DNA of 47,583 nt from Clostridiales bacterium (GTDB taxonomy: Bacteria; Bacillota; Clostridia; Christensenellales; UBA1242). Within the stretch, counting starts at the first letter, position 1. Every line of letters starts with the position of its first letter. The notes beneath the pieces were generated by a model. It made no database searches, was not told the origin of the DNA, and saw nothing but the letters and a program-made list of their open reading frames with translations. The translations under genes were made by a program, and so were the position numbers. Of the stretch, positions 5,919 through 22,621 are shown piece after piece. The DNA lies in contig CAKJZE010000021.1 of the NCBI GenBank assembly GCA_918285425.1, positions 1 to 47,583 on the forward strand, in the 5' to 3' direction.

Positions 5919-5934
5919 GGAAAAAGAAATAAAA

Positions 5935-5955
5935 GGCGGCGGTTGCCGTCTTTTT
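5935..5955. terminator. Terminator after gltX
   Basis: GGCGGC-ggtt-GCCGTC followed by TTTTT, with an A-run upstream. Confidence 0.7.
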
Positions 5956-6103
5956 ATCTTTCCATTTCTTGTTCTTTATCTTGGCTTGCAATCTTTTTGG
6001 CTTTCAAAAGATTGTCAAGGTTATGACCAATATCTTTGATTTTGCTGTTGTAAAGATTTCTGTAGGCGATTTCCACTGCACGTTTTGTTGATACTTTTTT
6101 CAT
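5954..6103 (-). CDS. possible small ORF (49 aa), not in the ORF track
   Basis: ATG at 6103..6101 to TAA at 5956..5954; product MKKVSTKRAVEIAYRNLYNSKIKDIGHNLDNLLKAKKIASQDKEQEMER. It ends at the bidirectional terminator, but no clear Shine-Dalgarno sequence is present. Confidence 0.25.
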   Translation of the reverse strand: MKKVSTKRAVEIAYRNLYNSKIKDIGHNLDNLLKAKKIASQDKEQEMER

Positions 6104-6244
6104 ATAGATATTATTAACTTGGGATTACTTTTTTTATACTATATAATATTTATTTTATTTGTAACTTATCTGTTTTTATGTTATAATTATTTTATCAAAT
6201 GATAAAAATGTATGTTCTTGCACAACATACTTTCAAGAGGAATA

Positions 6245-7075: not shown

Positions 7076-7106
7076 ATTGTTATTTTAAAATAAATAATTA
7101 CTAAAG

Positions 7107-8393: not shown

Positions 8394-8458
8394 AAATAAA
8401 ATTATAAAAATATAAAGTTTAGTGCTTTATATTTTTATTTTTTGTAAATAATTTAAAT

Positions 8459-8770
8459 ATGCAGAATGATTTTTATGAAAGAGTTTATGACTTAATAAAG
8501 CTTATCCCGTTTGGCAGGGTGACAACTTTTGGCGAGATTGCAAGGACTCTTGGTCAATATAGTGCCAGCAGACTTGTAGGGCGTGCAATACAAAATATAA
8601 ATAAATTTGGTAACGTTCCAATCCACAGAGTTGTCTTTAAAAATGGTGGACTTTGCAAAAAGTTTGCACTTGGAGGTGTAAAAGCACAAAAGCATCTTCT
8701 TGAGAGTGAGGGAATAGAGATAAAAAGGTATAGAGTTGATTTGCAAAAATATGGATTTTATTTTTGGTAA
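8459..8770 (+). CDS. MGMT-family DNA-binding protein lacking the acceptor cysteine (ATL-like)
   Basis: 103 aa. IPFGRVTTFGEIA helix-turn-helix block. The position of the PCHRV active site reads PIHRVV. Confidence 0.7.
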   Translation: MQNDFYERVYDLIKLIPFGRVTTFGEIARTLGQYSASRLVGRAIQNINKFGNVPIHRVVFKNGGLCKKFALGGVKAQKHLLESEGIEIKRYRVDLQKYGFYFW

Positions 8771-8779
8771 GTATGAATA

Positions 8780-8813
8780 AAAAAAAGACCAAACGTTAAA
8801 GTTTGGTCTTATT
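8780..8813. terminator. Bidirectional terminator
   Basis: agaccaaac-gttaaa-gtttggtct with flanking A and T runs, between convergent genes. Confidence 0.6.
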
Positions 8814-8826
8814 ATTTATACTTTTA

Positions 8827-9696
8827 TTATTCTTCACATCTTGCAACTGCAAGTGCCAGACTGCCTGGCCCAATATGACAAGAAACGCTGAGTGAAAGTG
8901 GATCAACAAAATGAATTGGAAGGTTTGGGAAGGCCTTTTCAATTTCTTCTTTAAATTTCATTGCCTCTTTTTCATTTTGTGTGTGAGCAATATTGATGCA
9001 AAGTTTGCCTTGGCTGTATGGCTCAATTAAGGAAGTTTCCAAATCTTTTTTAACTGCAGCAATCATCTTTTGTTTTGCTTGCATGATGTTCATAACTTTT
9101 GCGAAACTATCAAGTTTGTCACCATGTATCTGAAGAATAGGTTTAATGCTGAAAAGTTTTGCAAGAGCCGCAGCAGCAGGTGTGACTCTTCCACCTTTTT
9201 TAAGATACTTTAAAGTTGGCACCATAATATAAATTGTGGCATCCATCTTTGTATTTTCAAGATACTCTTTAATTTCACTTGCAGATTTGCCAGCTTCAGC
9301 CAGTTTAAGTGCTTCAAACACACTTGCCTTTTGAGTTACTGAAATGCGTTGGTTGTTGACAACAAACACTTTGCCTTCATATTCCTCTTCAGCATAGCGA
9401 ATTGCACTGTCACAACTTGAGCTTAAGCCGCTTGACATAGGAATATAAACAATTTGGTCAAATTCATTAAGAATTTTGTTCCAAATATCAGTCAGCTCTC
9501 CATATGATGGTTGAGATGTGAAAATTTCAGCATCATGTTTAAGCTTGTCGTAAAAATCATCAGTTGACAGGCTGATGTCTTCATAGTATTCTTCACCATC
9601 AATTAAAAAAGGCATTGGTACAATGAACAAATTTTTATGCTCACCAGTGTCTTTTATTCCAGCATTGCTGTCGGTTAAAATTGCAATTTTAGCCAT
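8827..9696 (-). CDS. DegV family fatty-acid-binding protein
   Basis: Typical DegV opening MAKIAILTDSNAGI; length 289 aa. Confidence 0.85.
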   Translation of the reverse strand: MAKIAILTDSNAGIKDTGEHKNLFIVPMPFLIDGEEYYEDISLSTDDFYDKLKHDAEIFTSQPSYGELTDIWNKILNEFDQIVYIPMSSGLSSSCDSAIRYAEEEYEGKVFVVNNQRISVTQKASVFEALKLAEAGKSASEIKEYLENTKMDATIYIMVPTLKYLKKGGRVTPAAAALAKLFSIKPILQIHGDKLDSFAKVMNIMQAKQKMIAAVKKDLETSLIEPYSQGKLCINIAHTQNEKEAMKFKEEIEKAFPNLPIHFVDPLSLSVSCHIGPGSLALAVARCEE

Positions 9697-9799
9697 ATAT
9701 CCTCAACTTTATCTTGTGTTTTTATACTATTATTATATACAATTTTGTAAAAAAATCAATTATTTTTTATTAATTGCATCAAAATATGAGCTAAATGCT

Positions 9800-10675
9800 T
9801 TAACTTTTAAGCAGAAGGTCTAAATTTTTACTTATTTTTGAGCGTACTTTTCTGTCTGGCAAACAGAGTGGCAACTTCATTGTAGCCTTTATCATGTCAA
9901 GTCTTTGCATTATATACTTTATTCCAACTGGGTTTGGAGCAAGTGCCAAAGAGTCAAAAAGTGGCTTGAAGTATTTATAGGTTTCAGCTGCTTGCTTTGG
10001 TGAAGTGGGGAAAGTCTCTATTACGTCATGCACAAGGTCTGGCATAATGTTGCCGATCACTGAAATGCTTGCGGTTGCCCCAAGTGAAAGTAGGGGGAGT
10101 AAGAACTCGTCATTACCACAGATCAATGAAAATGTATCATTTGCAAGAGTGGCAACTTTGCAAATGTGGTTGAAGTCTGTACTGGCTTCTTTAACGCCAA
10201 TTATGTTGATGCGTGATGAAAGTTGTTGCATGGTGGAAAAGTCTATGTTAACCCCAGTGCGTGATGGGTTGTTGTAAATGATGATGGGGATATAACTGTG
10301 CTCTGCAAGCTTTAAGAAGTGTTTTATAATTCCACTTTGAGTTGGCTTGACATAGCTTGGTGCACAGACAAGCAGCGCATCAGCTCCGTCAATAAATCTT
10401 GCGTGGGCTTCGGCGATGGCTGCCTCTGTGCTTGTTTCTGTAAGCCCTGCAATAATTGGTACACGCTTGTTTACCTTTTTTACTACAAGTTGCATAATTT
10501 TGCGTTTCTCATAGCCGTCCAGCAAATGTGCTTCGCCAGTTGCTCCCAAAACAACAAGGCCGTCAGTGCCATTATTAAGCTGAAAATCAACAAGCTCTTC
10601 CAGCTTATTGAAGTCTATATCGCCATTTCTTTTAAATGGTGTAATAAGTGCTGTATAATTTCCAGTTATCTTCAT
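9800..10675 (-). CDS. dapA: 4-hydroxy-tetrahydrodipicolinate synthase (DapA/NAL family)
   Basis: TALITPF, GATGE, IIIYNNPSRTG and IIGVKEAS (Schiff-base Lys) blocks. The ATG at 10675 is preceded by GGGGG at good spacing. Confidence 0.75.
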   Translation of the reverse strand: MKITGNYTALITPFKRNGDIDFNKLEELVDFQLNNGTDGLVVLGATGEAHLLDGYEKRKIMQLVVKKVNKRVPIIAGLTETSTEAAIAEAHARFIDGADALLVCAPSYVKPTQSGIIKHFLKLAEHSYIPIIIYNNPSRTGVNIDFSTMQQLSSRINIIGVKEASTDFNHICKVATLANDTFSLICGNDEFLLPLLSLGATASISVIGNIMPDLVHDVIETFPTSPKQAAETYKYFKPLFDSLALAPNPVGIKYIMQRLDMIKATMKLPLCLPDRKVRSKISKNLDLLLKS

Positions 10676-10766
10676 TTTTGCCCCCAAATGAAAAAATTTA
10701 CATAATTTTCTGCTTTATTTTATGCAAATCTCAAATTTGTGGTTAAAAATAAAAAAAGTTTTGTTA

Positions 10767-10795
10767 TTGTCTTGATTTTTTGTAAATTTTATAAT
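10767..10795 (+). promoter_or_regulatory. candidate sigma-70 promoter for tRNA-Ser
   Basis: TTGTCT, 17 nt, TATAAT, about 58 nt upstream of the tRNA 5' end. Confidence 0.35.
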
Positions 10796-10853
10796 ATACT
10801 ATGAAAGTCTTGAAGCGGTCATCCCCCCTTTTGACCAATTTAAGATAAAGTTT

Positions 10854-10941
10854 GGAGAGATGGCTGAGCGGTCGAAAGCGGCGGTCTTGAAAACCGTTGA
10901 TGTGCAAGCATCCTGGGGTTCGAATCCCTATCTCTCCGCCA
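10854..10941 (+). tRNA. tRNA-Ser (anticodon UGA), CCA encoded
   Basis: Hand-folded. Acceptor GGAGAGA/TCTCTCC; anticodon stem GCGGT/ACCGT with loop CTTGAAA (anticodon TGA); long variable arm GATG...CATC; T arm TGGGG-TTCGAAT-CCCTA; discriminator G followed by CCA. Confidence 0.92.
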
Positions 10942-12460
10942 TTTGCGAATAATCCGAACCCTTGTGGTTTGGGTTATTCTTTTTTTGTTCAATATATTCA
11001 ATTTCTTTGTCAATAGCAGGTTGGTCTTTAATGTCAAGTTGAGTGCCCTTATCACCAGTTGCATTGTAATAAATTGTCATTGTTCCGTCATCAAAAAGCA
11101 CAACACGATTTACAAACAAATCAATCATTCTTTGTTTTGCCAAAGTGTTGTTTTCGTCTATATCTTTGAAAGAACATAAAAAGTCATAAACCAAATTTTC
11201 ATCAAGTGGTTTAATAATTGTTAATTGTCTAATTGAAATCTTTTCTTGTAGTTCTTTATTATTACTTTCAAGTTCTTTCATTCTTGCATTTGTTGTATCG
11301 TTAAAAACACCATTTTCAAGTGCACGCAAAAGATTTACAAGTTTCTTGTTATTCTCTTGCAATTCTTTATTCAAACTTTCAAGGATTTTGTCTTTTTCAA
11401 TGTCTTTGTTATAAACATTACACATAACTTTTGCAATTGAGTGTAAATTTGTATGTTGCAAAAAATATTTAGTCATAGATATTACTTTTGCTTCTATATT
11501 CTCTTGACTAATAGATTTTTTGTCGCAAATAGACTTGTTCTTTTTCTTTGCAAAGCATTTGTAATAATTGTATATCTTGCCAAGTTTACCTTTGCCACTA
11601 TCTCCTGTCATTAAAGCGCCACATTTGCCACAAATAAGTTTTCCACTTAAAATATAATTAACATCTGTTTTGTGGTGTGCAGAAGTGCGTTTTGAGGCCT
11701 TTAATTTTTCATTAACTTCGTCAAATATTTCGCTATCAATGATTTGTGGGAAAATGTTTGTATAGCAAGTGTCATCAGCAAACACACAACCTTTGTAATT
11801 TGGATTTCTCAAAACTCTTGAAACCGAGTTGATAGTCCATGCCTTGCCATAACTGTTTTTCATGCCTTTGTCTTGCAAAAGTTTGACAATATCTTTAATG
11901 AGCTTGCCACTCAAATATTCATTAAACATAAGGCGAACAATATTTGCTTGTTCTTCATTTATGGAAACTTTTAAATCTTTAACAACATAACCATAAGGAG
12001 TTGGACCACCAGTAAATTGTCCTTTAATTCTGCTTTCTTTAAGCCCACGCTTAACCTTTTGTGATAGTTCGGCAGAATAATACTCTGCAATACTTTCAAG
12101 CATACCTTCCAAAATAATGCCTTCTGGATTATCTGATATTTGTTCGGTTGCAGAAAGAAGTTTAACACCATTTTGCTTTAATATTGCTTTGTTCATAGCA
12201 CTGTCATATCTTGACCTTGCAAATCTATCAAACTTGTAAACCAAAACAAAATCAAAGCCCTTTTTCTTGCTGTCATATAGCATTTGTTGAAGTGCAGGAC
12301 GATTATCATTTGTTCCTGTCATAGCCCTGTCAATATATTCCTTAACAATAACCAAATCATTTCTTTCGGCATATTCTTTACAAACTCTAACTTGACCTTC
12401 AATACTTTGTTCAGTTTGATTGTCGCTTGAATATCTTGCATAAATAACAGCTTTTTTCAT
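10928..12460 (-). CDS. large serine recombinase (integrase type)
   Basis: 510 aa. N-terminal resolvase catalytic domain (AVIYARYSSDNQTEQSIEGQ), a recombinase domain, a Cys-rich zinc ribbon (CGKCGALMTG...YYKC) and a coiled-coil C-terminus. Confidence 0.9.
   Translation of the reverse strand: MKKAVIYARYSSDNQTEQSIEGQVRVCKEYAERNDLVIVKEYIDRAMTGTNDNRPALQQMLYDSKKKGFDFVLVYKFDRFARSRYDSAMNKAILKQNGVKLLSATEQISDNPEGIILEGMLESIAEYYSAELSQKVKRGLKESRIKGQFTGGPTPYGYVVKDLKVSINEEQANIVRLMFNEYLSGKLIKDIVKLLQDKGMKNSYGKAWTINSVSRVLRNPNYKGCVFADDTCYTNIFPQIIDSEIFDEVNEKLKASKRTSAHHKTDVNYILSGKLICGKCGALMTGDSGKGKLGKIYNYYKCFAKKKNKSICDKKSISQENIEAKVISMTKYFLQHTNLHSIAKVMCNVYNKDIEKDKILESLNKELQENNKKLVNLLRALENGVFNDTTNARMKELESNNKELQEKISIRQLTIIKPLDENLVYDFLCSFKDIDENNTLAKQRMIDLFVNRVVLFDDGTMTIYYNATGDKGTQLDIKDQPAIDKEIEYIEQKKNNPNHKGSDYSQMAER
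10947..10987 (+). terminator. Strong Rho-independent terminator immediately after tRNA-Ser
   Basis: A 14-bp stem, gaataatccgaacc (10947-10960) with ggtttgggttattc (10966-10979), loop cttgt, then TTTTTTT. It lies inside the 3' end of the recombinase ORF on the other strand. Confidence 0.75.
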
Positions 12461-12462
12461 TT

Positions 12463-13959
12463 CTATTCTCCTTTATTTCGCTTAATTTTTATCAATTGAG
12501 TATATAATTCAGGGTTTCTATGAACTATAATTGCCAAATTAATCCTAGCCCTTGTAATTCCTTGATAAAATAATTTACTGAAAATATAATCTGGATTAGG
12601 GTGTTCTGGTGAATGCAAACGACCATCAATATATTTGAAATTTTGTCCCATAATCATTACAACGTTATCAAACTCTTGTCCAATAACTACATGTGTATTA
12701 TTCTTACTTACAAATTCATCAATTTCATGTCTTTTAAATAATGATGGTGTAAAACTAATATACTGATAATTAATTGTTTCTAAATATTTTACTAATTCGG
12801 AAGCTTCGTTTTTTGTAGATACATAGTAAATTTTAATATGTTCATAGTTTGCGTCTCTTTTTACTTCTGCTAAATTAACTACATTTTTAATAAATGAAGC
12901 TAAATTATAGTTAGTTCTAATTTTATTTGATAAATGGAATTGTTTCAGCTGAGATAACTTATTTATTTTACCATCTATGTCATTTCTGTTTTCCGATTTT
13001 TGAATTAACTGGTCTGTTCCAATTGAAAATATTGCTTTAACATTGTGCTCTTTTACAAAATCTATTAACATTTGAAATTCAGATATATATAATCTTTGAC
13101 TTTCGTCAATTATAAATAAATCATAATTATTTAATTTGCAATAATTAAATTCTTTTGCTGATATTATATCACAATTTTTCATTTTTTTATTTAATTCAAA
13201 ATGGCCAGAGTTTAGTATCCCTGAATGAACAACACAAATCTTAAAATCTTTAGATAATTTTTTTGCAATATCATAAACCAACAATGTTTTTCCAGTTCCA
13301 GCATCTCCCAATATTTTAAAATATGTAAATTGTTTTCTATTATAGATATCATTAATTATATCATTTTTTATTTGTTGTTGTTGATTAGTTAAAAAATATT
13401 CATTATTTAAAAATTTATCAACATTGTTAAAAGGAGATACTAAATAACAAGCTGGTTTGATAATTTTATCTAAATCATTTTCAAAATAGTTATTGGTCAA
13501 ATTTATTATAGATATAAATTCATTTAAATTGGTTTTTTCAAGTTTTAATTGTTCATTTAATTTATAAAATTCATTATCTTTTGCTACAAAAGTAAAAGAA
13601 TACACCTTGCCTCTAACATTTTTCAAATAATAACTATTTTGGATTAATTGTTTTTCAATCTTCTCTGTTGATGTAAATTCTGATTTTATTTCTATATTTA
13701 AAACATAATCATTCAGTATTTTTATCAAGTCAAATTCTTTAGATATTTGGTCAATGGTATAAGAATAATAGAACCCACTCATATATGCAATATTACATTT
13801 AGAATGCATTAAATCAACCAGTTGATATAAATTTTCTCTTTCATATTCTTTAACTTTTATTTGTCTTTTTGAATTTGTTATACAATTTAAATAATCGTTA
13901 AATTCATCATTGCTTAGTGGTTTTGTTTTAGATAATAAAAACAAATTAATTGGAAACAT
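12463..13959 (-). CDS. PD-(D/E)xK nuclease-like N-domain fused to a P-loop/SF1-helicase-like ATPase (DUF2075-like)
   Basis: EFDLIKI...LNIEIKS (D...ExK); Walker A GDAGTGKT; Walker B LFIIDESQRL; C-terminal YQGITRARINLAII. Its TAG stop lies 2 nt before the recombinase ATG, and the recombinase RBS (AAGGAGAA) sits in its last codons. Confidence 0.7.
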   Translation of the reverse strand: MFPINLFLLSKTKPLSNDEFNDYLNCITNSKRQIKVKEYERENLYQLVDLMHSKCNIAYMSGFYYSYTIDQISKEFDLIKILNDYVLNIEIKSEFTSTEKIEKQLIQNSYYLKNVRGKVYSFTFVAKDNEFYKLNEQLKLEKTNLNEFISIINLTNNYFENDLDKIIKPACYLVSPFNNVDKFLNNEYFLTNQQQQIKNDIINDIYNRKQFTYFKILGDAGTGKTLLVYDIAKKLSKDFKICVVHSGILNSGHFELNKKMKNCDIISAKEFNYCKLNNYDLFIIDESQRLYISEFQMLIDFVKEHNVKAIFSIGTDQLIQKSENRNDIDGKINKLSQLKQFHLSNKIRTNYNLASFIKNVVNLAEVKRDANYEHIKIYYVSTKNEASELVKYLETINYQYISFTPSLFKRHEIDEFVSKNNTHVVIGQEFDNVVMIMGQNFKYIDGRLHSPEHPNPDYIFSKLFYQGITRARINLAIIVHRNPELYTQLIKIKRNKGE

Positions 13960-13979: not shown

Positions 13980-14124
13980 AAGTGGGTATCCCACTTGTGT
14001 AAGCAAATGGGAGTGGTAAAAAATGCAAAAAGAATTGTTGTTCAAAGTGAGTCACCGGAAACGCTTGTTTTTAGGGGCTTTTTCACTTTGAAAATAGCAT
14101 TTTGAACCTACTCTTATCCTGCTT
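13980..14124 (+). repeat. Left copy of the ~145-nt inverted repeat bracketing the R-M operon
   Basis: Matches the reverse complement of 18901-19046 at roughly 85 percent identity by eye. The outer end is the 17-nt palindrome aagtgggtatcccactt. Confidence 0.9.
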
Positions 14125-14164
14125 GGTAAAATTACACTCATATTATAACGCCAATTTAAGAAAA

Positions 14165-14204
14165 TTGCAACAATTTATTCGCAAATACAAATATTTTGTT
14201 GCAA
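14165..14204. promoter_or_regulatory. Perfect 9-bp inverted repeat (candidate operator for the HTH controller)
   Basis: TTGCAACAA (14165-14173) and TTGTTGCAA (14196-14204) separated by 22 nt. The right arm overlaps the predicted -35. Confidence 0.45.
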
Positions 14205-14227
14205 AATTAAAAATAAAGTAGTATACT
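14199..14227 (+). promoter_or_regulatory. candidate promoter of the R-M operon
   Basis: TTGCAA, 17 nt, TATACT, about 30 nt upstream of the HTH gene. Confidence 0.45.
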
Positions 14228-14256
14228 TATCATAGATTATTTAAAGAGGTCTAAAA

Positions 14257-14457
14257 ATGAGTATTTCGTATAACAAACTTTGGAAACTTTTGATTGATAA
14301 AAATATGACAAAAACAGATTTGAGATTGCAAGCTGATATCGCAACTTCCACTCTTGCTAAACTTAGTAAAAACGAACAAGTAAGCATGGAAGTTTTGCTT
14401 AAAATTTGTAAAACACTAGATTGCGATTTTGATGATATAATTGAGAGGGTTGATTAA
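14257..14457 (+). CDS. small HTH (XRE/Cro-like) protein, likely controller (C) protein of the R-M operon
   Basis: 66 aa (MTKTDLRLQADIATSTLAKLSKNEQVSMEVLLKICKTLDCDFDDII). First gene of the operon; its stop lies 1 nt before the methylase ATG. Confidence 0.75.
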   Translation: MSISYNKLWKLLIDKNMTKTDLRLQADIATSTLAKLSKNEQVSMEVLLKICKTLDCDFDDIIERVD

Positions 14458-14458
14458 T

Positions 14459-15370
14459 ATGTGTAAAGGAATTGCAAAACCATTTTTAAAATGGGCTGGC
14501 GGTAAAGGTCAACTGCTTAACAAGTTTGAAGAGATGTATCCACAGGAACTTATAAATGGCGAAATTGACACATACATTGAACCTTTTGTTGGTGGTGGTG
14601 CAGTTTTATTTGATGTCCTTCAAAAATATAAAATTAAAAAAGTGGTTATTGTTGACTTAAACAAAGAACTTGTAAATTGTTATCGTTGTATTAAAGCCGA
14701 TGTAAATGAACTTATAAAACATCTTAAAACTTTGCAAGATGAATTTTTATCACTGAGTGATGAAAAGAGGAAAGATTATTTCTTAAAAGTTAGAAATAGA
14801 TATAATGAAATTCATCTTAATGGGAAATATGATTTTGAAAAAGCCGCAGATTTCATTTTTTTAAATAAAACTTGTTTTAATGGTCTTTATAGAGTAAATA
14901 GCAAAGGTGAATTTAATGTCCCATTCGGTAAATATAAAAATCCATTGATTTGTGATAGCGAGAATTTAACTCTAATAAGCAAACTTTTACAAAATGTAGA
15001 AATAAGATTTGGAGATTATTCTATTTGTGAAGAATATGTAAATGGAAAAACTTTTATATACTTTGACCCACCTTATCGCCCACTTATAGAAAATTCATCA
15101 TTTGTTGGTTATGATAAATCTGGTTTTAATGATGACAATCAAAAAGAACTGGCTGAATTTGTAAAAAAACTTGATAAGCAAAATTGTTTAGTAATGCTTA
15201 GCAATTCAGATCCTAAAAACACTAATCCTGATGATAATTTCTTTGATGAACTTTACAAAGGATTTCAGATTGATAGAATCTTTGCAAAAAGAATGATAAA
15301 TTGCCAAGCAGATAAACGAGGAGATATAACTGAAATTGTTGTAAGAAATTACAAAAGGAGAAAATTTTAA
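14459..15370 (+). CDS. Dam/DpnM-type N6-adenine DNA methyltransferase (GATC class)
   Basis: PFLKWAGGKGQLL N-terminus, motif I EPFVGGGAV, motif IV FDPPY. The ATG at 14459 is preceded by GAGAGG. Confidence 0.88.
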   Translation: MCKGIAKPFLKWAGGKGQLLNKFEEMYPQELINGEIDTYIEPFVGGGAVLFDVLQKYKIKKVVIVDLNKELVNCYRCIKADVNELIKHLKTLQDEFLSLSDEKRKDYFLKVRNRYNEIHLNGKYDFEKAADFIFLNKTCFNGLYRVNSKGEFNVPFGKYKNPLICDSENLTLISKLLQNVEIRFGDYSICEEYVNGKTFIYFDPPYRPLIENSSFVGYDKSGFNDDNQKELAEFVKKLDKQNCLVMLSNSDPKNTNPDDNFFDELYKGFQIDRIFAKRMINCQADKRGDITEIVVRNYKRRKF

Positions 15371-16249
15371 ATGAGAAGTAAAACAATCAATGTTTTCTTA
15401 ATGGACGGAGACCCTACTTGCAAAATAAAATGCACATTGCAAAATTGGACTGGAATAGCTTATAAAATTCCAAGAACAATGCTAGAAGATTGCAAAGAGG
15501 GAGAAAAAGATATAGTTAAACATTTAAAACAGACAGGAATTTATTTTCTATTAGGAGAAGATTCCAATACAGGAAATAAAGCAATTTATGTTGGACAAGC
15601 TGTTTCTAGGAAAAATGGCGAAGGATTACTTTGTAGATTATTAGAACATAAAAGGAATATGAAGGAAAAATATTGGAATGACTGGAATGAAGTTATAGTT
15701 TTTACAACTCAAAATGATTCATTTGGTCCAACAGAAATTAGTTACCTTGAAAATAAATTTACTAATCTTGCTAGAAGTGCTGGAAGATATGAAGTAAAGA
15801 ATGGTAATGAGCCTAACCCAGGTAATATCACAGAAGAAAAAGAAAGTGAACTTTTAGAATATGTGGATTATGCTCGAATTATTATAGGAATGCTTGGACA
15901 TAAAGTTTTTGAACAATTAGTAAAATCAAATCCTCTTACGAATAAAGTTGATAGCCCTATCTTCTATTTTAAAGGCAAAATAAAAGCAACTGGCATTTTT
16001 ACCAATGAAGGTTTTGTCGTATTAAAAGGTTCTTCAATAAGTCCCAAGTTAAATCCAAGTGCACATAAATTCACAATTAAAGCAAGAGAAATGAACAAAA
16101 ACAAAATAGATGAAAATTATATTTTATTAGAAGATGTTTTGTTTACAAGCCCATCAGCAGCAGCCGGATTTGTAGGCGGTTCAAGTTTAAGTGGAAATGC
16201 AATGTGGGTAACAAGTTATGGCAAATCACCAAAAGATGTCGAATTATAA
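15371..16249 (+). CDS. GIY-YIG nuclease domain protein with a C-terminal DUF4357-like domain
   Basis: GIYFLLG...IYVGQA...RLLEH...ISYLE (GIY-YIG). C-terminal FVVLKGS...SPSAAAGFVGGSSLSGNAMW is recalled as the DUF4357 signature. Its ATG directly abuts the methylase stop. Confidence 0.7.
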   Translation: MRSKTINVFLMDGDPTCKIKCTLQNWTGIAYKIPRTMLEDCKEGEKDIVKHLKQTGIYFLLGEDSNTGNKAIYVGQAVSRKNGEGLLCRLLEHKRNMKEKYWNDWNEVIVFTTQNDSFGPTEISYLENKFTNLARSAGRYEVKNGNEPNPGNITEEKESELLEYVDYARIIIGMLGHKVFEQLVKSNPLTNKVDSPIFYFKGKIKATGIFTNEGFVVLKGSSISPKLNPSAHKFTIKAREMNKNKIDENYILLEDVLFTSPSAAAGFVGGSSLSGNAMWVTSYGKSPKDVEL

Positions 16250-16265
16250 AACATAGGAGAACATT

Positions 16266-17123
16266 ATGAAAAGAAATTTTAAAGAATGGTTAAATGATTT
16301 CACAGATAGTATTGCAACTTATGAATACTACACCGAATTTAATATAGTTTATAAAAACATTGATAAACTTAAAGTTGAACTTAACATTATGAATTCTCTT
16401 ATTGGTTCAAAGAATATTGAACAGGATTTTGATAATCTTTTCAAAAAATATCCAGAGATAAGGAAATGTTTGCCACTTCTTATTGCTGTTAGAGAAAATG
16501 AAATTAAAGTTATTGATGAAGGCGAAAAACTTAAATACAACTTCAAAACAATAGATGATATTGATTTACTAAAAAGGTTTATGAGAAAAACTGGGCTTTT
16601 TGACTTAATATCAAATCATTTAGTAAACAATCTTGTCGATTACACTACTGGAGTTGAAGTTGGACTTGGCTCAAATGGAAGAAAAAATCGTGGTGGACAT
16701 CTAATGGAAGATGTATTGCAAGGATATATTGAAAAAGCTGGATTTGTAAAAAATCAAACATATTTCAAAGAAATGTATTTGAGTGATATTGAGAAAAAAT
16801 GGAATATTGATTTATCAAAACTTTCTAATCTTGGCAAGGTAGCAAAAAGATTTGATTATGTTGTAAAAACAAAAAATTGTATTTATGCCTTTGAAACAAA
16901 CTTCTATTCAAGCAATGGCTCAAAATTAAATGAAACTGCAAGAAGCTATAAAATGCTTGCTGAAGAAAGTAAATATATTAAAGGATTTGCTTTTGTTTGG
17001 GTTACTGATGGTTTAGGTTGGCAAGGCGCTAAAAATAATCTTGAAGAAACATTTGATGTTTTAGATAACATCTTCAATCTAAAAGAATTGGAACAAGGTA
17101 AATTAAAGGAAATATTAAAATAA
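16266..17123 (+). CDS. DpnII/MboI-family type II restriction endonuclease (GATC)
   Basis: Long blocks match my recollection of R.DpnII: LNIMNSLIGSKNI, LVDYTTGVEVGLGSNGRKNRGG, GSKLNETARSYKM, WVTDGLGWQGAKNNLEETFD. Confidence 0.85.
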   Translation: MKRNFKEWLNDFTDSIATYEYYTEFNIVYKNIDKLKVELNIMNSLIGSKNIEQDFDNLFKKYPEIRKCLPLLIAVRENEIKVIDEGEKLKYNFKTIDDIDLLKRFMRKTGLFDLISNHLVNNLVDYTTGVEVGLGSNGRKNRGGHLMEDVLQGYIEKAGFVKNQTYFKEMYLSDIEKKWNIDLSKLSNLGKVAKRFDYVVKTKNCIYAFETNFYSSNGSKLNETARSYKMLAEESKYIKGFAFVWVTDGLGWQGAKNNLEETFDVLDNIFNLKELEQGKLKEILK

Positions 17124-17842
17124 TGCAAGAAGAATTTGAACTTGAAACTAACACCGTTTGGAGTTTTCCTAATCGTGGCAAATGGGCAACACATGATGCA
17201 AAATATCGTGGGAATTTTTCGCCCTATGTAGCAAAAAATATAATTTTGAGGTATTCACAACCAAACGATTATGTGTTAGATCAATTTGTTGGTGGTGGCA
17301 CCACTCTTGTCGAATGTAAGTTAAACAATAGAAATGCTATTGGAATTGATATAAACCCTAAAGCTGTTGAATTAACAAAAGAAAAACTTAATTTTGATTG
17401 CAATTTTTCAAACAATATAGAAGTTCAACTTGGCGATGCTTGTAACTTAAAAAATATTGATGACAATAGTATTGATTTAATTTGCACTCATCCACCTTAT
17501 GCAGACATTATCAAATATAGTGATGATATTGATGGCGATTTATCTCACTTAAAATACAAAGAGTTCTTGACTGCAATTGAAAAAGTTGCTAGTGAATGTT
17601 ATAGAGTGCTTAAAAAAGACAAATTTTGTGCTATTGTTATGGGAGATACTAGAAAAAAAGGCATGGTGCAACCACTTGGTTTTGAAGTTATGCAAAGATT
17701 TGTAAATGCCGGCTTTAAACAAAAAGAAATAATTATAAAAGAACAACACAATTGTAAAGCAACAGGTTTTTGGAAAACAAATAGTCAAAAATTTAATTTT
17801 TTACTTTTAGCACATGAATATATTTTTATATTTAAAAAATAA
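17123..17842 (+). CDS. second DNA methyltransferase (motif order X-I-IV, gamma-like)
   Basis: WSFP...THDAKYRGNFSPYVAKNIILRYSQPNDYVLDQFVGGGTT (motifs X and I), then CTHPPYADI (motif IV with His in the usual D/N/S position). Its start overlaps the endonuclease stop by 1 nt. Confidence 0.75.
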   Translation: MQEEFELETNTVWSFPNRGKWATHDAKYRGNFSPYVAKNIILRYSQPNDYVLDQFVGGGTTLVECKLNNRNAIGIDINPKAVELTKEKLNFDCNFSNNIEVQLGDACNLKNIDDNSIDLICTHPPYADIIKYSDDIDGDLSHLKYKEFLTAIEKVASECYRVLKKDKFCAIVMGDTRKKGMVQPLGFEVMQRFVNAGFKQKEIIIKEQHNCKATGFWKTNSQKFNFLLLAHEYIFIFKK

Positions 17843-17850
17843 GGAGAATT

Positions 17851-18894
17851 ATGGAGAAGAAATTTTCAAGTTCAAAAGGCCTTTCAAAATCGTTAATGTT
17901 TGAATGGGTGGTTCGAAGAATACTTGAAGAACAGTATGTTGTCAATACAGTGGATCAAACTTTAAATGGATTCGATTTAAAAACTGTTGATAATATCAAT
18001 ATAGAAATAAAATATACAACAAGAAGCAACTTGTTGAGTTTTGTAAATTCTTTAAAGTTTTTTATAGAAACTCATCCAAATTACGCACTCGAACGAATAA
18101 TTTTTATAACAAGTTCTATTTGTGAAGATGTATTTTCTAATCAAAATAAAAGTGATGAAGTTAAATCACTTAACATTATTTCATTGGAAAATCTAATCTA
18201 TTTATGTAAAGATAATGATAATTTACTATCTCAATTAAAAATGTGTTTAAATTTTTCAACAGAAAATATAAAACCAATACCTCTTGATGAAAACGTTCAA
18301 AAATTATTACAACCTTCAAAAAAAGAAAACTTTAAAAAAGTTGAGAATATTGATTATTATAATAAATTAATATCAATTCCTCATGGCCGAAATCATTTTT
18401 CGCAATATGAAAAATTCTGTGAGGATTTTATTAAAACCATTTTTCAAGATAATATTGAGGACCCTATTCCACAAAAAATTAACAATCAAGGCTTATATAG
18501 GTTTGATTTAGTAGCAGCATTAAAATCAGAAGCAAAAAGTTTTTGGAAATTTATATACGATAAATATAATTCATGTTTCATTTTGTTTGATTGCAAAAAT
18601 TATACAGGGACAATTGAACAAGAAGAAATTTATTCAACAGAGAGATATTTATATAATAATGCTTTAAGAAATGTAGGTATTATACTATCCAGAAAAGGGG
18701 CTTCTCTTCATGCCAAAATTGCCTGCCAAGGTATTCTTAAAGAACATGGCAAATTAATATTAGTTCTTGATGACAATGATATGAAAGAATTAGAAATCTT
18801 ATATAAAAATAATAAAAAAGGCATTGACTACCCGACTCCATCAGATTTTTTATTTGATAAGGCAAAAGACTTTTTGTTAAATTTAGACAAATAA
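17851..18894 (+). CDS. hypothetical protein with two PD-(D/E)xK-like motifs (restriction-endonuclease-like)
   Basis: GFDLKTVDNINIEIKY near the N-terminus and YRFDLV...FILFDCKNY in the C-terminal half. AAGGAG RBS. Last gene of the operon, ending 6 nt before the right inverted repeat. Confidence 0.5.
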   Translation: MEKKFSSSKGLSKSLMFEWVVRRILEEQYVVNTVDQTLNGFDLKTVDNINIEIKYTTRSNLLSFVNSLKFFIETHPNYALERIIFITSSICEDVFSNQNKSDEVKSLNIISLENLIYLCKDNDNLLSQLKMCLNFSTENIKPIPLDENVQKLLQPSKKENFKKVENIDYYNKLISIPHGRNHFSQYEKFCEDFIKTIFQDNIEDPIPQKINNQGLYRFDLVAALKSEAKSFWKFIYDKYNSCFILFDCKNYTGTIEQEEIYSTERYLYNNALRNVGIILSRKGASLHAKIACQGILKEHGKLILVLDDNDMKELEILYKNNKKGIDYPTPSDFLFDKAKDFLLNLDK

Positions 18895-18900
18895 AATAGT

Positions 18901-19046
18901 AAGCAGGATAAGAGTGGATTCAAAATGCCATTTTCAAAGTAAAAAAGTCCCTAAAAACAATAGTTTCCAGTGACTCACTTTGAACAACAATTCCTTTTGG
19001 CATTTTTACCCACTCCCTTTTTAGCAAGCAAGTGGGATACCCACTT
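18901..19046 (-). repeat. Right copy of the ~145-nt inverted repeat bracketing the R-M operon
   Basis: Reverse complement of 13980-14124. The outer palindrome aagtgggatacccactt (19030-19046) is followed here by a T-run, so on the plus strand it doubles as a terminator for the operon. Confidence 0.9.
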
Positions 19047-19171
19047 CTTTTTTTATATAAACTAGTGAAAATTTTTAATTTATATGTTATAATATGAACG
19101 GCACTTATCCGAGAGTGCCACGGATTAAAGTCAATTGTTGCTATATGCTTTTTGTATAATGCAAAAAGTGT

Positions 19172-19411
19172 ATGAAGAAAACAATTGATGAACAATGTTT
19201 TATTGATTGTGTAAATATAGATGAAAACACTGCTACTTACAACTTTAACACAAAAATATTAAAGCAAGGCAAAGTAAATATGTCCCAAAAGCAAATAAAC
19301 CATATCGGTTCTATTCTTGCAACTGACTTAAAAAACTTTGCAGAAAGTAATGGCGACTTTTCAAATCTAACAGCAAATGAAGTTTATACTCATTTGTTGG
19401 ATAATCAATAA
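19172..19411 (+). CDS. hypothetical 79-aa protein (gene X)
   Basis: No clear Shine-Dalgarno sequence. Its last 10 codons recur at 22493-22522 with only synonymous differences, which supports real coding. Confidence 0.5.
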   Translation: MKKTIDEQCFIDCVNIDENTATYNFNTKILKQGKVNMSQKQINHIGSILATDLKNFAESNGDFSNLTANEVYTHLLDNQ

Positions 19412-19511
19412 ACATTGCAAAGAAGAAGTTGAAAAAACTTCTTCTTTTTTTTGTTAGACTCTATAAATTTCTATTTAATTGTGCTATAATGATAATTAGT
19501 GAGGAGCACAT
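19370..19511 (+). repeat. 5' junction element, copy a (gene X 3' end + terminator + promoter + RBS)
   Basis: Aligns collinearly with 22481-22621 at about 70 percent identity by eye, up to the start codon of the downstream gene. Confidence 0.75.
19421..19452 (+). terminator. Terminator after gene X
   Basis: agaagaagtt-gaaaa-aacttcttct followed by a T-run. Confidence 0.75.
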
Positions 19512-21683
19512 ATGATTAATAAAATTGAGTTAAACAATATTGCTACATATAAGCATTGTGAAATATATCCTAAAAAAATTAATTATATTTATGGAGGTAA
19601 TGGCACAGGCAAAACTTCAATATCAAAATTTTTAGCAAATCCAGTAAATTATCCTACAAGCAATTTGACCACAGAAAATTATCCAATTGATATACTTGTA
19701 TATAATAAAGACTTTATAGAAGATAATTTTGATAAGGATAAATCAATAAAGGGAATATTTACAATTGGAGAAGAAAATAAAGAAATAGAAGAAAATATAA
19801 ACAAATTGTTAATAAAAAAAGAAGAAATCGAAAAACAAAAAACTATACGCATTAATAAAATTGAAGAATTTACCGAGAATGCAAAAACCTTGCATAACGA
19901 ATTTTGTAATAATTGTTGGACAATAAAAAAAGTTGCAGAACCATATAAAAAATCTATAAGTGGTGTTTTAAATTCTAGAGAAGCATTTGCCGAAATGTGC
20001 GATAAGAACTTTTTAAATACAAAAACAACGACAGAACTTGGTTCATTTGATGAAAGATACAAAATGCTATATGAGACACATATGCAAGTATATAATAAGT
20101 TTTCAGAATTAGAATTTACAAGATTATCTGAAATTGAAAACAATTCTCTATTAAATAAAAGTATCATAGCAAAGGAAGATAATCCACTGTCGTCTATAAT
20201 TCAAAAGTTAAACAATAGTGACTGGATTAAACAAGGTGTAGAATATTTAGATAGCACTCATAACATTTGCCCATTTTGTCAAAGAGAACTAACAGCCAAA
20301 ACGATAAAGGATTTAGAGAATTTATTTGATGAAGAATATGACAAAAATATGAATGAATTAAAAACACTAAACGATGAATATCAGAAATTATCAAATAGTT
20401 TAATTCTCAATATGGAAAATGTTGCTCAAACTTCTTATCAAATATTAGATTATTCAGGCATAAGTACATTATTATTAGAAATAAAGTCTGTAATAAAAGA
20501 CAATATAAAGCTTTTAAATGATAAAATAAAGTTTCCTTCAAATAAGATTGAATTAAATAAAACTAATAATTTATTGAACCAAATAAATTCTGTGATTAAA
20601 GAATACAATAGAATAATTAAAAGAAATAATGAACTATCTTCTAAGCAATTACAAGAAAAGAATAAGTTAAGCAATGATATATGGCAAGCGATTTCAAATA
20701 ATTATCTTTATGAAACCATAAATGAATATAGGAAAAAGAGTGAAGGAATTAAATCTGCGACTCATAAAATGATGATGGAAAGAGACTCTTATGCTCAAGA
20801 CATTGCCGAAATAGAAATAGAGATTAACAATTTGCAATCCAAAGTATCTACTATTGACAACGCGATTAATGAAATAAATAAAATATTAAAAGGGTTTGCT
20901 TTTACAGGTTTTTATTTGCGTAAAGCTAAAGATAATAGAAATTATGAAATAATTCGCGAAGATGGGAGTAATGCAAAAGATACATTAAGTGAGGGTGAAG
21001 AACGTTTTATTACATTTCTCTATTTTATTCAATTAATAAATGGCAATGTAGAAAATAAAAGAACAATAAATAAAAAAGTTGTAGTAATAGATGACCCCAT
21101 TTCAAGTCTTGATAGCAATATTATATTTATTGTAAGTTCTCTTGTAAAAGAGATTATAAACAATTGCATCAATAGCAACAATTTAATAGATCAAGTTATA
21201 GTATTAACACATAACATCTATTTTCATCATCAAATTAGTTTCAGACCAAAAAGTAATCAATTGTCACCTAATTTGTTTTCATTTTTTACAATCCATAAAA
21301 AAGATAATCTTTCAACAATTGAACAATCTCAAAAGAATTTGATTCAAACATCATATGAACTTTTATGGCAGGAAATAAAGCAGCCAGAAATAACAAGTAG
21401 GGCTAATATATTCAACTCAATGAGAAGAATTTTAGAATATTATTTTGATATTATTGGTGGGTTAGACTATGATAATCTTATATCTACATTTACCGGCGAA
21501 GACAAAATTATTTGTAATTCTTTAATTTCTTTTGTAAATGCTAATTCACATTCTATTGCAGATGATTTTGTTATTGGATTTAGTGAAGAAGATATAGACA
21601 AATATTTAGTTGTCTTTAAAAAAATATTTATTAATAGTAATCATAAAGCACATTACGAAATGATGATGTCTAGAGAATACTAA
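19512..21683 (+). CDS. RloC/PrrC-like anticodon nuclease (AAA_13-type ABC-like ATPase with zinc-hook coiled coil)
   Basis: Walker A GGNGTGKTS; long Lys/Glu/Asn-rich coiled coil containing CPFC; LSEGEERF signature; Walker B VVVIDDPISSLD; LTHN; C-terminal MRRILEYYF ... NANSH, resembling the PrrC Arg-Glu-His nuclease triad. Confidence 0.7.
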   Translation: MINKIELNNIATYKHCEIYPKKINYIYGGNGTGKTSISKFLANPVNYPTSNLTTENYPIDILVYNKDFIEDNFDKDKSIKGIFTIGEENKEIEENINKLLIKKEEIEKQKTIRINKIEEFTENAKTLHNEFCNNCWTIKKVAEPYKKSISGVLNSREAFAEMCDKNFLNTKTTTELGSFDERYKMLYETHMQVYNKFSELEFTRLSEIENNSLLNKSIIAKEDNPLSSIIQKLNNSDWIKQGVEYLDSTHNICPFCQRELTAKTIKDLENLFDEEYDKNMNELKTLNDEYQKLSNSLILNMENVAQTSYQILDYSGISTLLLEIKSVIKDNIKLLNDKIKFPSNKIELNKTNNLLNQINSVIKEYNRIIKRNNELSSKQLQEKNKLSNDIWQAISNNYLYETINEYRKKSEGIKSATHKMMMERDSYAQDIAEIEIEINNLQSKVSTIDNAINEINKILKGFAFTGFYLRKAKDNRNYEIIREDGSNAKDTLSEGEERFITFLYFIQLINGNVENKRTINKKVVVIDDPISSLDSNIIFIVSSLVKEIINNCINSNNLIDQVIVLTHNIYFHHQISFRPKSNQLSPNLFSFFTIHKKDNLSTIEQSQKNLIQTSYELLWQEIKQPEITSRANIFNSMRRILEYYFDIIGGLDYDNLISTFTGEDKIICNSLISFVNANSHSIADDFVIGFSEEDIDKYLVVFKKIFINSNHKAHYEMMMSREY

Positions 21684-21792
21684 CTATTGTTTTCACCCAC
21701 CCAGCGCCTACAAATATTCTAGGGTTAGGATTGGATTGCGCCCGCTCCGCCAATCGTAACCTAAATCGAACCACTCGATTTGGGTTTATTTT
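21684..21792 (+). repeat. 3' junction element R1 (conserved ~65-nt core + private terminator hairpin)
   Basis: Starts at the stop codon of 19512-21683. Core ...CCACCCAGCGCC..TAGGGTTAGGATTGGAT..GCTCCGCCA. Hairpin 21758-21769/21775-21786 followed by a T-rich tail. Confidence 0.85.
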
Positions 21793-21812
21793 ATATCTTA
21801 GGGGGTATTTCG

Positions 21813-22433
21813 ATGTATCATTTTGGTGTACTTGTTAGTGAAAATTAAAAGCTTACGAGAGAAAAATACATAAATTATTATAAAGAAAATAAGCAGCAAT
21901 TTACATTAGAAGATATTCTTTACAACTATGATCTTAATATTGATTATTACAATAATCTTAATAAAGTAGATTTTGATAAAGAATTAAATAGGTTTTTCAA
22001 TAAGTTTAAAAGATTTAGAGAAATATATGATTTACAAGAATGCAATTGTGACGGTTTTTATATAATGATTTTGGATAATTATAAGCAAGTATATATTGGT
22101 ATTGCTGATAATATTAAGAAACGTATTTTACAGCATTGGAAAAACAGTCCTAATACTATGATTGTTGGCACAAAAAACAACTCTAAATTATGCATCGATT
22201 CTTTCAAAGCATTGGATACAACAAGAATTTTTGTCTATACAAATGAACAATTTGCAATTAACGTAAGAAATGCTAATCTGATTATGGAAGATGAAAAAAA
22301 TAGTCATTTAATAAAACACGTTTCAGAAACCTTGGAAGATGAAGAAAATAAAATGATTAAATATTTTAACAACAAATATACATGTAATAGATTTGCACGA
22401 CTAATCATGAAATCATTCTATAGAGATTTTTAA
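21813..22433 (+). pseudogene. GIY-YIG nuclease gene interrupted by an in-frame TAA at 21846-21848
   Basis: AGGGGG RBS, then ATG at 21813 encoding MYHFGVLVSEN, then TAA. The same frame then stays open for 195 codons, through GFYIMILDNYKQVYIGIADNIKKRILQHW (GIY...YIG...R...H). There is no ATG/GTG/TTG between 21849 and the ATG at 22065, and that ATG lies inside the GIY motif. Confidence 0.7.
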
Positions 22434-22480
22434 AAATTTATTATTTGTCCAATTTTTAATTATTGTATTTATTAAAAACA

Positions 22481-22621
22481 ACAACAAATAAAGTTTATAC
22501 TCACTTGCTAGACAATCAATAAACACTGCAAAAGGAAGAACTTGAAATATAGTTCTTCCTTTTTTGTTTTCACTATGGACATTTAACTAAAAATATTGTA
22601 TAATAATTTTAGGAGATAATT
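22481..22621 (+). repeat. 5' junction element, copy b (relic of the gene X C-terminus + terminator + promoter + RBS)
   Basis: 22493-22522 encodes VYTHLLDNQ-stop, as in gene X. An upstream in-frame TAA at 22457 shows that only a relic remains. Terminator ggaagaact-tgaaatat-agttcttcc and a TATAAT box follow. Confidence 0.75.

Follow-up and report, generated by a model that had tools for sequence, protein, structure and literature searches.

A contig of 47,583 nucleotides from a Clostridiales bacterium (GenBank assembly GCA_918285425.1, contig CAKJZE010000021.1; the whole of this stretch is called the window below) carries a defence operon lying between two inverted repeats of about 145 nt, and the question raised by this locus is what these repeats are. 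An earlier note, made from the letters alone, took them for the ends of a transposon-like mobile restriction-modification (R-M) unit, at which the cassette could also be inverted, lost or exchanged. Comparison with related loci led us to another answer: the arms of the repeat are two copies of an uncatalogued hairpin-plus-terminator element of ~150 nt, and not transposon ends. As to its function, we favour, with a probability of roughly 55%, a terminator/leader module that sits at the junctions between cargo and backbone in mobile elements and acts in RNA as an attenuator or an insulator.

Inverted repeat and its two arms

The inverted repeat is real: 13980-14124 and the reverse complement of 18901-19046 align over 149 columns, 87.9% of them identical (blastn within the window, E 7e-45), and the same pair was recovered by a repeat finder run on the window. 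No further copies occur in these 47.6 kb, the remaining blastn matches being AT-rich noise of 10-26 nt. The mismatches and indels of the blastn alignment are grouped, much as the earlier note had it, at 13998-14010 versus 19017-19029, and this cluster corresponds to the linker joining an outer 17-nt palindrome to a long inner hairpin. Each arm is itself a strongly folding imperfect palindrome joined to a 17-nt hairpin (z from -4.6 to -6.5 versus shuffles). The copies are as follows.

13980..14137, minus strand: left arm, an element copy with a 5' extension (14137-14125), AAGCAGGATAAG, the long hairpin and the 17-nt hairpin (13996-13980)
18888..19054, plus strand: right arm, an element copy with a 5' extension, AAGCAGGATAAG (18901-18912), the long hairpin, the terminator hairpin (19030-19046) and C+T7 (19047-19054)

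Most of the geometry described in the earlier note was reproduced. At their outer tips the arms show AAGTGGGTATCCCACTT and its complement, at the inner ones ...CTCTTATCCTGCTT; the left arm lies 132 nt before the ATG (14257) of the first gene of the operon, encoding a helix-turn-helix (HTH) regulator, and 20 nt from the ATG (13959) of the adjacent minus-strand gene, while the right arm begins 6 nt past the last stop codon (18894). A Pfam scan found no transposase between the arms. The right palindrome, supposed to act as the operon terminator, is indeed scored as an intrinsic terminator by the terminator scan, although the run of eight T said to follow it is in fact C followed by T7 (19048-19054). 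The left palindrome was correctly placed upstream of the ribosome-binding site (RBS) of the neighbouring gene; the label of this gene, "DUF2075-like", has to be replaced, as PADLOC assigns it to the AbiO/Nhi-type defence genes. Finally, what had been called a complete R-M operon comprises more than a DpnII-type system, its genes being those for HTH, Dam methylase, PDC-S14/DUF4357, DpnII endonuclease, N6_N4 methylase and a 347-aa protein.

Sequence and structure of the element family

An 18-mer taken from the arm had one real match among 185,579 species-representative genomes, in an uncultured Clostridia metagenome-assembled genome (MAG; locus L003). One of the copies in L003 has a quite different interior, with both ends and the stem kept via compensatory changes. 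A pattern that included the termini only retrieved 39 metagenome loci; L003 and ten loci found by protein look-ups (L048-L057) were added to them, and the arms belong to a family of ~45 sequences.

Read on the strand of the gene that it faces, the element is ~150-170 nt long and consists of five parts. The first is an A/T-rich conserved stretch of ~13 nt (AAATTTAyAGnAA), followed by the invariant 12-nt motif AAGCAGGATAAG at the 5' side. The third, a covarying long hairpin of ~110 nt, has a conserved base (GG-AUAA-GG paired with CCCC) and a variable interior. Then come an invariant hairpin of 7 bp (AAGUGGG nnn CCCACUU), the lower stem of which covaries, and a U-tract, defined by at least 6 T within 10 nt after the hairpin on the gene-sense strand and found in 37 of the 41 copies. 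The two invariant motifs also share an 8-mer, AAGYRGGA (AAGCAGGA and AAGTGGGA), which forms a direct repeat with a distance of ~130 nt (18901-18908 and 19030-19037 in the window).

The structure was assessed on an alignment of 41 sequences. RNAalifold, run on the plain MAFFT alignment, recovered the terminator hairpin alone; the basal stem was taken from a sequence subgroup and then tested. The named pairs are standard ones in 91.3% of cells versus 84.6% in shuffles, none of 500 of which reached the observed value, and thirteen pairs are changed on both sides; sliding the partners drops pairing to 38-55%, a contrast that is inflated because the structure was derived from the same 41 sequences. 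In the lower terminator stem, CG was counted 20 times, AU 10 times and GC 9 times.

The element was not found in the collections that we searched. Rfam 15 gave no match at or above the gathering score, the window yielding only tRNA and signal recognition particle (SRP) RNA, the left arm nothing significant at E<=10, and 20 other member loci only tRNAs. Neither the left arm nor 16 concatenated variants had a blastn match in phage records or PLSDB plasmids, two scans of viral contigs showed the element to be absent from them, and a literature search for its motifs brought up no relevant context.

Two arguments concerning the family were dropped. The strand that starts with the small hairpin folds more stably in 32 of 40 copies, yet composition-matched shuffles behave equally (-3.05 vs -2.73 kcal/mol); this strand bias in folding energy is therefore an artefact of composition, uninformative on the functional strand. 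The ~30 conserved nucleotides upstream of the element were considered as a promoter, in which case the element would be a small-RNA gene, and rejected in this capacity, the spacing from TTG to TAnnnT being only 13-15 nt.

Genomic contexts and orientation

Three types of carriers bear the element: tRNA-integrated serine-recombinase islands, tyrosine-integrase islands and a MobL-type conjugative element. In the serine-recombinase islands the recombinase gene overlaps the 3' end of a tRNA-Ser or tRNA-Leu gene, and the arrangement is recombinase, cargo slot 1, element, orf79 (a conserved gene for a 79-aa protein) and cargo slot 2, with cargo as diverse as R-M systems, GNAT/APH enzymes, reverse transcriptase, PycTM, S_4TM, helicases and others. 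Slot 1 of two such loci (L013 and L044) holds a GNAT acetyltransferase, an APH phosphotransferase and a second GNAT, i.e., aminoglycoside-type modifying enzymes, and hence the slot is not restricted to anti-phage genes. The tyrosine-integrase islands (L019, L026, L031 and L042) comprise a second integrase, a KorA-like gene, F13, the element, xis and int, and further in they carry type III R-M, Gabija-like, MmeI-type and Abi_2 cargo. Within the conjugation operon the element lies between the gene for a 1476-aa surface protein, preceded by those for the MobL relaxase and the coupling protein, and a pilin gene of the type IV secretion system (T4SS), followed by those for a membrane protein and a VirB4-like ATPase.

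The element is located at the junction of variable cargo and a conserved backbone operon, and its small-hairpin/terminator end always faces a gene transcribed away from it, be it orf79, xis-int, the T4SS pilin gene or the serine recombinase. The gap between the hairpin and the start of this gene amounts to 20-22 nt for the recombinase operon, 56-78 nt for the pilin genes, 58-127 nt for xis and about 111-125 nt for orf79. There is clear room for a separate promoter only before orf79, where one is predicted in the window; the recombinase, pilin and xis genes must be expressed by read-through.

In a profile search combined with a fuzzy motif search, only one copy per cargo slot was detected in 11 of the 14 complete serine-recombinase islands. 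Two arms are present in the window, L003 and L051/L053, where the second copy always reads into the recombinase operon; in L035 and L043 a diverged copy is directed at another serine recombinase gene located ~660 nt downstream. Contigs of 229-343 kb contain no more than two element-bearing stretches and no more than three copies (L037 holds two). The repeat is not high-copy, as would be a scattered repetitive extragenic palindromic (REP) sequence or miniature inverted-repeat transposable element (MITE), named in the earlier note as part of a refuting outcome. In L037 (ERZ1643247 NODE-19, 229 kb) we also observed two or three tandem islands (~220-10927), in which the element copies all point the same way and a junction brings a recombinase gene up against the S_4TM effector gene of the following island, like in the composite arrays of staphylococcal cassette chromosome (SCC) elements.

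These contexts bear on two further explanations of the element. According to one, it would be a cis-acting processive antiterminator RNA, like canT of Tn916, conAn of pLS20 or put of HK022, with the help of which polymerase reads through its own and later terminators; such read-through would allow expression of the xis-int, T4SS and recombinase genes. The position of the element immediately before long transfer operons, where a new promoter would find no space, fits this explanation, as do its invariant motifs and conserved fold, and in the tyrosine-integrase islands (L019, L026, L031 and L042) it is placed as canT is, between an orf7/orf8-like pair and xis and on the xis-sense strand. However, canT, the cis-acting processive antiterminator RNA between orf8 and xis of Tn916, needs 341-452 nt (PMC11658703), as against the 150-170 nt of the element, and has no detectable similarity to it: an nhmmer --max profile search and fuzzy motif searches of the Tn925/pCF10 orf8-xis region were empty. 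Besides, in the commonest context, that of orf79, the terminator is followed by a predicted promoter of the gene's own, and often the element merely ends an unrelated cargo operon. Altogether, we consider a processive antiterminator quite improbable.

The other explanation places the function in DNA: the element would be an origin of transfer (oriT) or some other site recognised in trans, and the islands devoid of relaxase would hitchhike on conjugative elements bearing the same site. The opposite strand reads, in this case, hairpin, long hairpin and ...TTATCCTG/C, with a putative nick in the TTATCCTGC motif; the ...TTATCCTG/C at the foot of the long hairpin resembles, over 7-8 nt, YATCCTG/Y, the consensus of IncP/MOB_P nick sites. 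When the literature was searched for this consensus, nothing relevant came up. The terminal motifs are invariant and common to the serine-recombinase islands, the tyrosine-integrase islands and the conjugation operon, as would be expected for one trans-acting reader; the islands have nearly no backbone beyond the recombinase, orf79 and the element; and in the conjugative loci MobL relaxase, coupling protein, T4SS genes and the element belong to the same operon. Plasmid pLS20, the relaxase of which is of the MOB_L type, has its oriT inside the conjugation operon, with the nick on the template strand beside an inverted repeat (PMC5313138). In the element, too, the putative nick would fall on the template strand; the pLS20 nick sequence, however, is unrelated to the element. 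Moreover, among ~50 neighbour proteins scanned there was no adjacent relaxase or accessory gene in any context, the only relaxase found being the MobL of L020, three genes upstream and ~6.6 kb away; the U-tract on the gene strand (37/41) has no role in an oriT; and 0 of the 16 concatenated variants matched a PLSDB plasmid. Taken together, these points make an oriT unlikely.

Cargo exchange between related islands

Whether the arms define a mobile unit or the edges of a slot can be judged by comparing the window with its relatives. Apart from the two arms, the island in the window has the following composition.

10854..10941, plus strand: tRNA-Ser(UGA) (ARAGORN; Rfam tRNA, 57.9 bits), the island integration site
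10928..12460, minus strand: large serine recombinase, 510 aa (Pfam Resolvase, Recombinase and Zn_ribbon_recom)
12463..13959, minus strand: AbiO/Nhi-type defence gene, 498 aa (PADLOC AbiO 1.3e-139, Nhi 7.9e-139; Pfam SLFN-g3_helicase, weak)
14142..14170, minus strand: predicted sigma-70-like promoter TTGCAA-17-TATAAT (10/12 matches; promoter scan), pointing into the left arm and the recombinase operon
14199..14227, plus strand: predicted divergent promoter TTGCAA-17-TATACT (promoter scan) for the HTH/R-M operon
14257..18894, plus strand: cargo slot 1, six-gene defence operon (Pfam, PADLOC, NCBIfam)
14257-14457, plus strand, slot 1: HTH_26 regulator
14441-15370, plus strand, slot 1: Dam (D12) methylase (Pfam, NCBIfam Dam)
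15371-16249, plus strand, slot 1: PDC-S14/DUF4357 (phage-defence candidate of PADLOC)
16266-17123, plus strand, slot 1: DpnII endonuclease
17123-17842, plus strand, slot 1: N6_N4 methylase
17851-18894, plus strand, slot 1: 347-aa protein, distant relatives of which carry Mrr-type nuclease domains (PF04471)
19065..19093, plus strand: predicted orf79 promoter GTGAAA-17-TATAAT with an extended -10 TG (promoter scan)
19172..19411, plus strand: orf79 (tblastn), conserved 79-aa protein with no function assigned by Pfam, NCBIfam or PADLOC
19369..22565, plus strand: cargo slot 2 (PADLOC, Pfam AAA_13) with PDC-S06/AAA_13 (19512-21683) and a UzuA fragment (122-aa open reading frame (ORF), 22065-22433)

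L003 possesses a recombinase 90% identical to that of the window (88% at the nucleotide level), a homologue of orf79 and, between them, two inverted copies of the repeat; its cargo differs from that of the window and consists of a C5/N6_N4 methylase fusion and a putative HNH endonuclease. L051 likewise has a different R-M cargo between the same repeats and the same recombinase and orf79 flanks. In L014 the slot is empty: orf79, the element and the recombinase are present, with nothing between the latter two. Thus, two of the arrangements that the earlier note proposed to look for, other cargo between the same repeats and an empty site with a single repeat copy, do exist. The third, an inverted cassette, was seen in no relative: the HTH operon reads from the recombinase side towards orf79 in the window, L048, L049, L050 and L051 alike, and the position and orientation of the right arm are the same in the last four. 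The arms do delimit an exchangeable cargo slot, and no inverted allele was found among the relatives.

The cassettes most like that of the window are those of L048 and L049, two of the single-copy islands. They include HTH, Dam, an IceA/NlaIII-type restriction gene, N6_N4 methylase and the 347-aa gene, with an extra 377-aa gene after Dam in L048, and are accompanied by the right-hand copy only; homology to the window resumes at 14138-14142, at the conserved divergent promoter block and immediately on the cargo side of the left arm. This arrangement largely refutes the view that the arms are terminal inverted repeats of a mobile R-M unit, or inversion/excision sites for the adjacent recombinase. 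Several facts did speak for it: the 145-nt arms bracket the complete defence operon exactly, the large serine recombinase operon begins 20 nt away, the same arms enclose other cargo in L003 and L051, and there is a precedent in transposon-like R-M units with inverted repeats (PMC2853133). Nevertheless, a single copy is found in 11 of the 14 complete islands, and that of L014 stands without any cargo; no target-site duplication can be recognised, ...TATAATATCA outside the left arm and CTTTTTTTAT... outside the right one sharing no direct repeat; the recombinase's own site is the tRNA 3' end; and all the relatives examined keep one orientation. The element is found as well with tyrosine integrases and conjugation operons lacking a serine recombinase, and so it is not a site specific to the adjacent serine recombinase. 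A mobile unit bounded by the arms, or inversion or excision at them, is thus highly improbable.

Alternatively, the arms could serve mainly as portable homology for RecA-dependent swaps of cassettes between islands, possibly alongside a transcriptional role. A model for swapping driven by homology is the exchange of DpnI/DpnII cassettes in pneumococci. Nucleotide homology of the window with L003 and L051 does end at the inner ends of the arms, the flanks being 79-96% identical; one and the same slot is filled by at least 10 different sets of cargo; and slot 2 lies between direct repeats of the orf79 3' end. On the other hand, most islands are single-copy, and exchange there would need the recombinase gene or other flanks as the second block of homology; nor does homology alone account for the covarying structure, the invariant motifs, the U-tract and the strict orientation. 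That the arms act mainly as homology we consider quite improbable.

Exchange is visible within the cassettes, too. The operons of the HTH-Dam-...-methylase-347-aa type differ in their restriction gene, DpnII in the window and IceA/NlaIII-type elsewhere, and in an inserted gene, which is PDC-S14 in the window (15371-16249) and a 377-aa or 411-aa gene elsewhere. The swapped-gene regions of the relatives are 3453-5257 in L048, 3054-3725 in L049 and 7789-9635 in L051, where IceA is on the opposite strand. To judge from these sequences, genes are being swapped inside the HTH-Dam-...-347-aa operon.

Left and right arms as proposed leader and terminator

The two copies in the window differ in their terminator end. 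The right arm was called by the terminator scan, with a 7-bp stem containing 4 GC pairs followed by CTTTTTTTAT, and would be a full stop of the defence operon, separating it from orf79. The left arm fails the test for an intrinsic terminator, as its U-tract is degenerate (TTTGATATTAT) and the scan made no call. It lies 17 nt downstream of the minus-strand promoter TTGCAA-17-TATAAT, which is conserved in L051 and is part of the block common to the window, L048 and L049, and the RBS of the AbiO/Nhi gene comes directly after the arm. The left arm is 96% identical to one of the L003 copies (L003_A), is absent from L048 and L049 and is kept in L051, where paired changes have turned its small hairpin into AAATAGG/CCTATTT, so that pairing is retained with fewer G-C pairs. 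Within the left arm, CCCAUUUG can form an alternative hairpin with CAAGUGGG (-12.7 kcal/mol, z -3.3), which is antiterminator-like and would compete with the terminator. These features suggest that the left arm may be a leaky leader of the AbiO/Nhi-recombinase operon that limits expression of the recombinase. An attenuator in the form of a 1:2 / 2:3 / 3:4 chain of alternative pairings was tried for the family as a whole and rejected: it is weak across the family (mean z -0.97) and convincing only in the recombinase-leader copies. The inverted placement of the two arms follows from the fact that the AbiO/Nhi-recombinase and orf79 operons point outward from the cargo slot.

Possible function of the element

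The reading that we favour, a terminator/leader module at cargo-backbone junctions, builds on the existence of the family, its covarying structure, the U-tract, the orientation rule, the spacing, the one- and two-copy islands, their cargo differences and the empty slot; to judge from the U-tract, the spacing and the orientation rule, it would act at the RNA level, as an attenuator or insulator. The module would, in this case, have been placed between variable cargo and a backbone operon by integrative and conjugative elements of gut Clostridia, with its terminator end pointing at that operon. The window would be a serine-recombinase defence island integrated in tRNA-Ser and possessing two such junctions: the right copy would end the R-M/defence operon and shield orf79 from read-through, while the left copy, by virtue of its weakened terminator, would act as a leaky leader keeping the expression of the recombinase low.

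Several points weigh against this reading. The sequences of the family are related by descent, and the counts given above overstate the number of independent observations. Alternative pairing of the attenuator style is weak family-wide (mean z -0.97), neither folding energies nor counts of wobble pairs identify the functional strand, and the conserved stretch upstream of the element, with its wrong sigma-70 spacing, is not accounted for by it. Furthermore, the invariance of AAGCAGGATAAG and of the upper 7 bp across unrelated elements is more than would be expected of a plain terminator or insulator.

This invariance suggests recognition by a specific factor, and it is from here that the oriT and antiterminator explanations arise. 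They can be brought together by supposing a common signal: a factor from a helper conjugative element would recognise the element, either as an attenuator opened by the helper's antiterminator or as an oriT nicked by the helper's relaxase. Minimal islands, with hardly anything besides a recombinase, orf79 and the element, would then be activated or mobilised along with conjugative elements of the MobL type, and the presence of two short invariant motifs in three types of carriers, despite drift between the motifs, would be accounted for. We regard such dependence on a helper as rather unlikely.

If the terminator/leader module is the right reading, the inverted repeat in the window is a trace of a conserved uncatalogued cis-element marking the end of cargo and the start of the core, and not a new route of R-M mobility. 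The element would in this case be a landmark for delimiting the cargo slots of small tRNA-integrated defence islands, whose content spans R-M, AbiO/Nhi, PDC-S06, PDC-S14, Gabija-like and CBASS/Pycsar-type effector genes, and would offer a way of testing how such small islands hold their recombinase in check; from its invariant motifs one may learn whether there is a tie between the islands and helper conjugative elements.

Other features of the island

The gene content, as seen by PADLOC and Pfam, together with the recombinase abutting a tRNA gene identifies the locus as a defence island of small size integrated at a tRNA gene. The recombinase ORF and the tRNA-Ser gene overlap at their 3' ends, similarly to the overlaps with tRNA-Leu or tRNA-Ser in islands with recombinases of other clades (L014, L022, L035 and L036), and tRNA 3' ends appear to be where this family integrates. 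The 510-aa recombinase is distantly like the Ccr (CcrA/B) and XisF recombinases, the NCBIfam matches being under the curated cut-offs, and its homologues, with 42-90% identity, adjoin the element in at least 12 loci. The AbiO/Nhi gene is translationally coupled to the recombinase gene, and an RBS-like AAGGAGAA precedes the ATG of both. It is a clean indel in comparison with L003, which lacks it, and is present in L051. With a PADLOC E-value of 1e-139 it counts as a defence gene and not as an accessory gene of the recombinase.

As for orf79, it is the commonest downstream partner of the element, tblastn matches adjoining the latter in ~18 loci, and its homologues make up at least 142 protein clusters, all of them unnamed. 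It had no match in Pfam, NCBIfam or PADLOC, and its AlphaFold2 model, with a predicted local distance difference test (pLDDT) score of 70, had no fold match in PDB (best E 1.8, uninformative). In its predicted 5' untranslated region (19095-19171) two short palindromes, GGCACT...AGTGCC and CTTTTTG...CAAAAAG, can be discerned by eye.

Slot 2 is bracketed by direct repeats, 19369-19451 and 22480-22565 (84% over 86 nt, blastn), each of which comprises the last ~14 codons of orf79 and the orf79 terminator. The repeat is single in L003, and in L051 slot 2 holds a different gene, of 363 aa. The direct repeats suggest that slot 2 cargo may have been gained by recombination at the 3' end of orf79. According to PADLOC, PDC-S06 (AAA_13) is related to PrrC and LmuB. 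Exact-protein look-ups of the flanking AbiO/Nhi and AAA_13 genes returned no record. The G+C content is 32%, and parts of the island backbone have 88-97% nucleotide identity to a Clostridia MAG; a large-type bacterial SRP RNA (Rfam RF01854, 139.9 bits) is encoded at 44783-45046 on the minus strand. Taken as a whole, these features are in keeping with a Firmicute of low G+C as the host.

Comparison with known systems

Among intergenic repeats, REP sequences and the bacterial interspersed mosaic elements (BIME) built of them, enterobacterial repetitive intergenic consensus (ERIC) sequences, BOX, RUP and Correia elements resemble the element in being imperfect palindromes of ~100-150 nt, some of which act as terminators or mRNA stabilisers. 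In contrast to all these, the element has a low copy number, a fixed gene context and a fixed orientation, and, unlike the ends of MITE or REP, its conserved ends (AAGTGGG...CCCACTTG and CCTTATCCTGC) show no reverse complementarity to one another.

The attC sites of integrons, ~60-140 nt in length, are also imperfect palindromes with conserved ends and an interior conserved only in structure, and they also form the boundaries of exchangeable cassettes. The element is distinguished from them by the lack of IntI, attI, Pc and attC core sites and by copies that are inverted or single, rather than direct and one per cassette; its cargo genes have their own promoters and either orientation, and the U-tract and the orientation rule point to transcription.

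With the SCC islands, the islands discussed here have in common a large serine recombinase, distantly Ccr-like in our case, site-specific insertion at the 3' end of a conserved gene, tandem arrangement (L037) and cargo for defence or resistance. They differ in the target, which is a tRNA 3' end and not rlmH, and in having one recombinase instead of a pair, with similarity far below the family cut-offs. We know of no SCC element that carries such a structured element or orf79.

In the transposon-like R-M units that have been published, inverted repeats are combined with a duplication of 8 bp, and an empty site is seen (Furuta, Abe and Kobayashi, 2010, PMC2853133). The window is similar to them in that an R-M operon lies between imperfect inverted repeats with no transposase inside, and dissimilar in the absence of a target duplication, in repeats that do not travel with the cassette, in the single-copy relatives and in the tie to backbone operons. 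The same paper (PMC2853133) describes units of R-M plus integrase inserted in tRNA genes, and it is to these that the window is closer.

To canT the element is similar by its position in the tyrosine-integrase islands, its strand and its nature of a structured non-coding region; unlike canT, it is shorter, ends in a terminator and has no sequence or profile similarity to the Tn925/pCF10 region.

Finally, terminators are known in conjugative elements, such as terminator T1 of Tn916 (PMC11658703) and those within the conjugation operon of pLS20 (PMC10325885). Like them, the element has a GC-rich hairpin and a U-tract on the gene strand, occurs at the edge of core genes, between cargo and transfer or recombination genes, and has a probably leaky version upstream of the recombinase. 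Unlike ordinary terminators, conserved in shape only, it is preceded by a ~110-nt covarying hairpin and an invariant 12-nt motif, and its upper stem is invariant.

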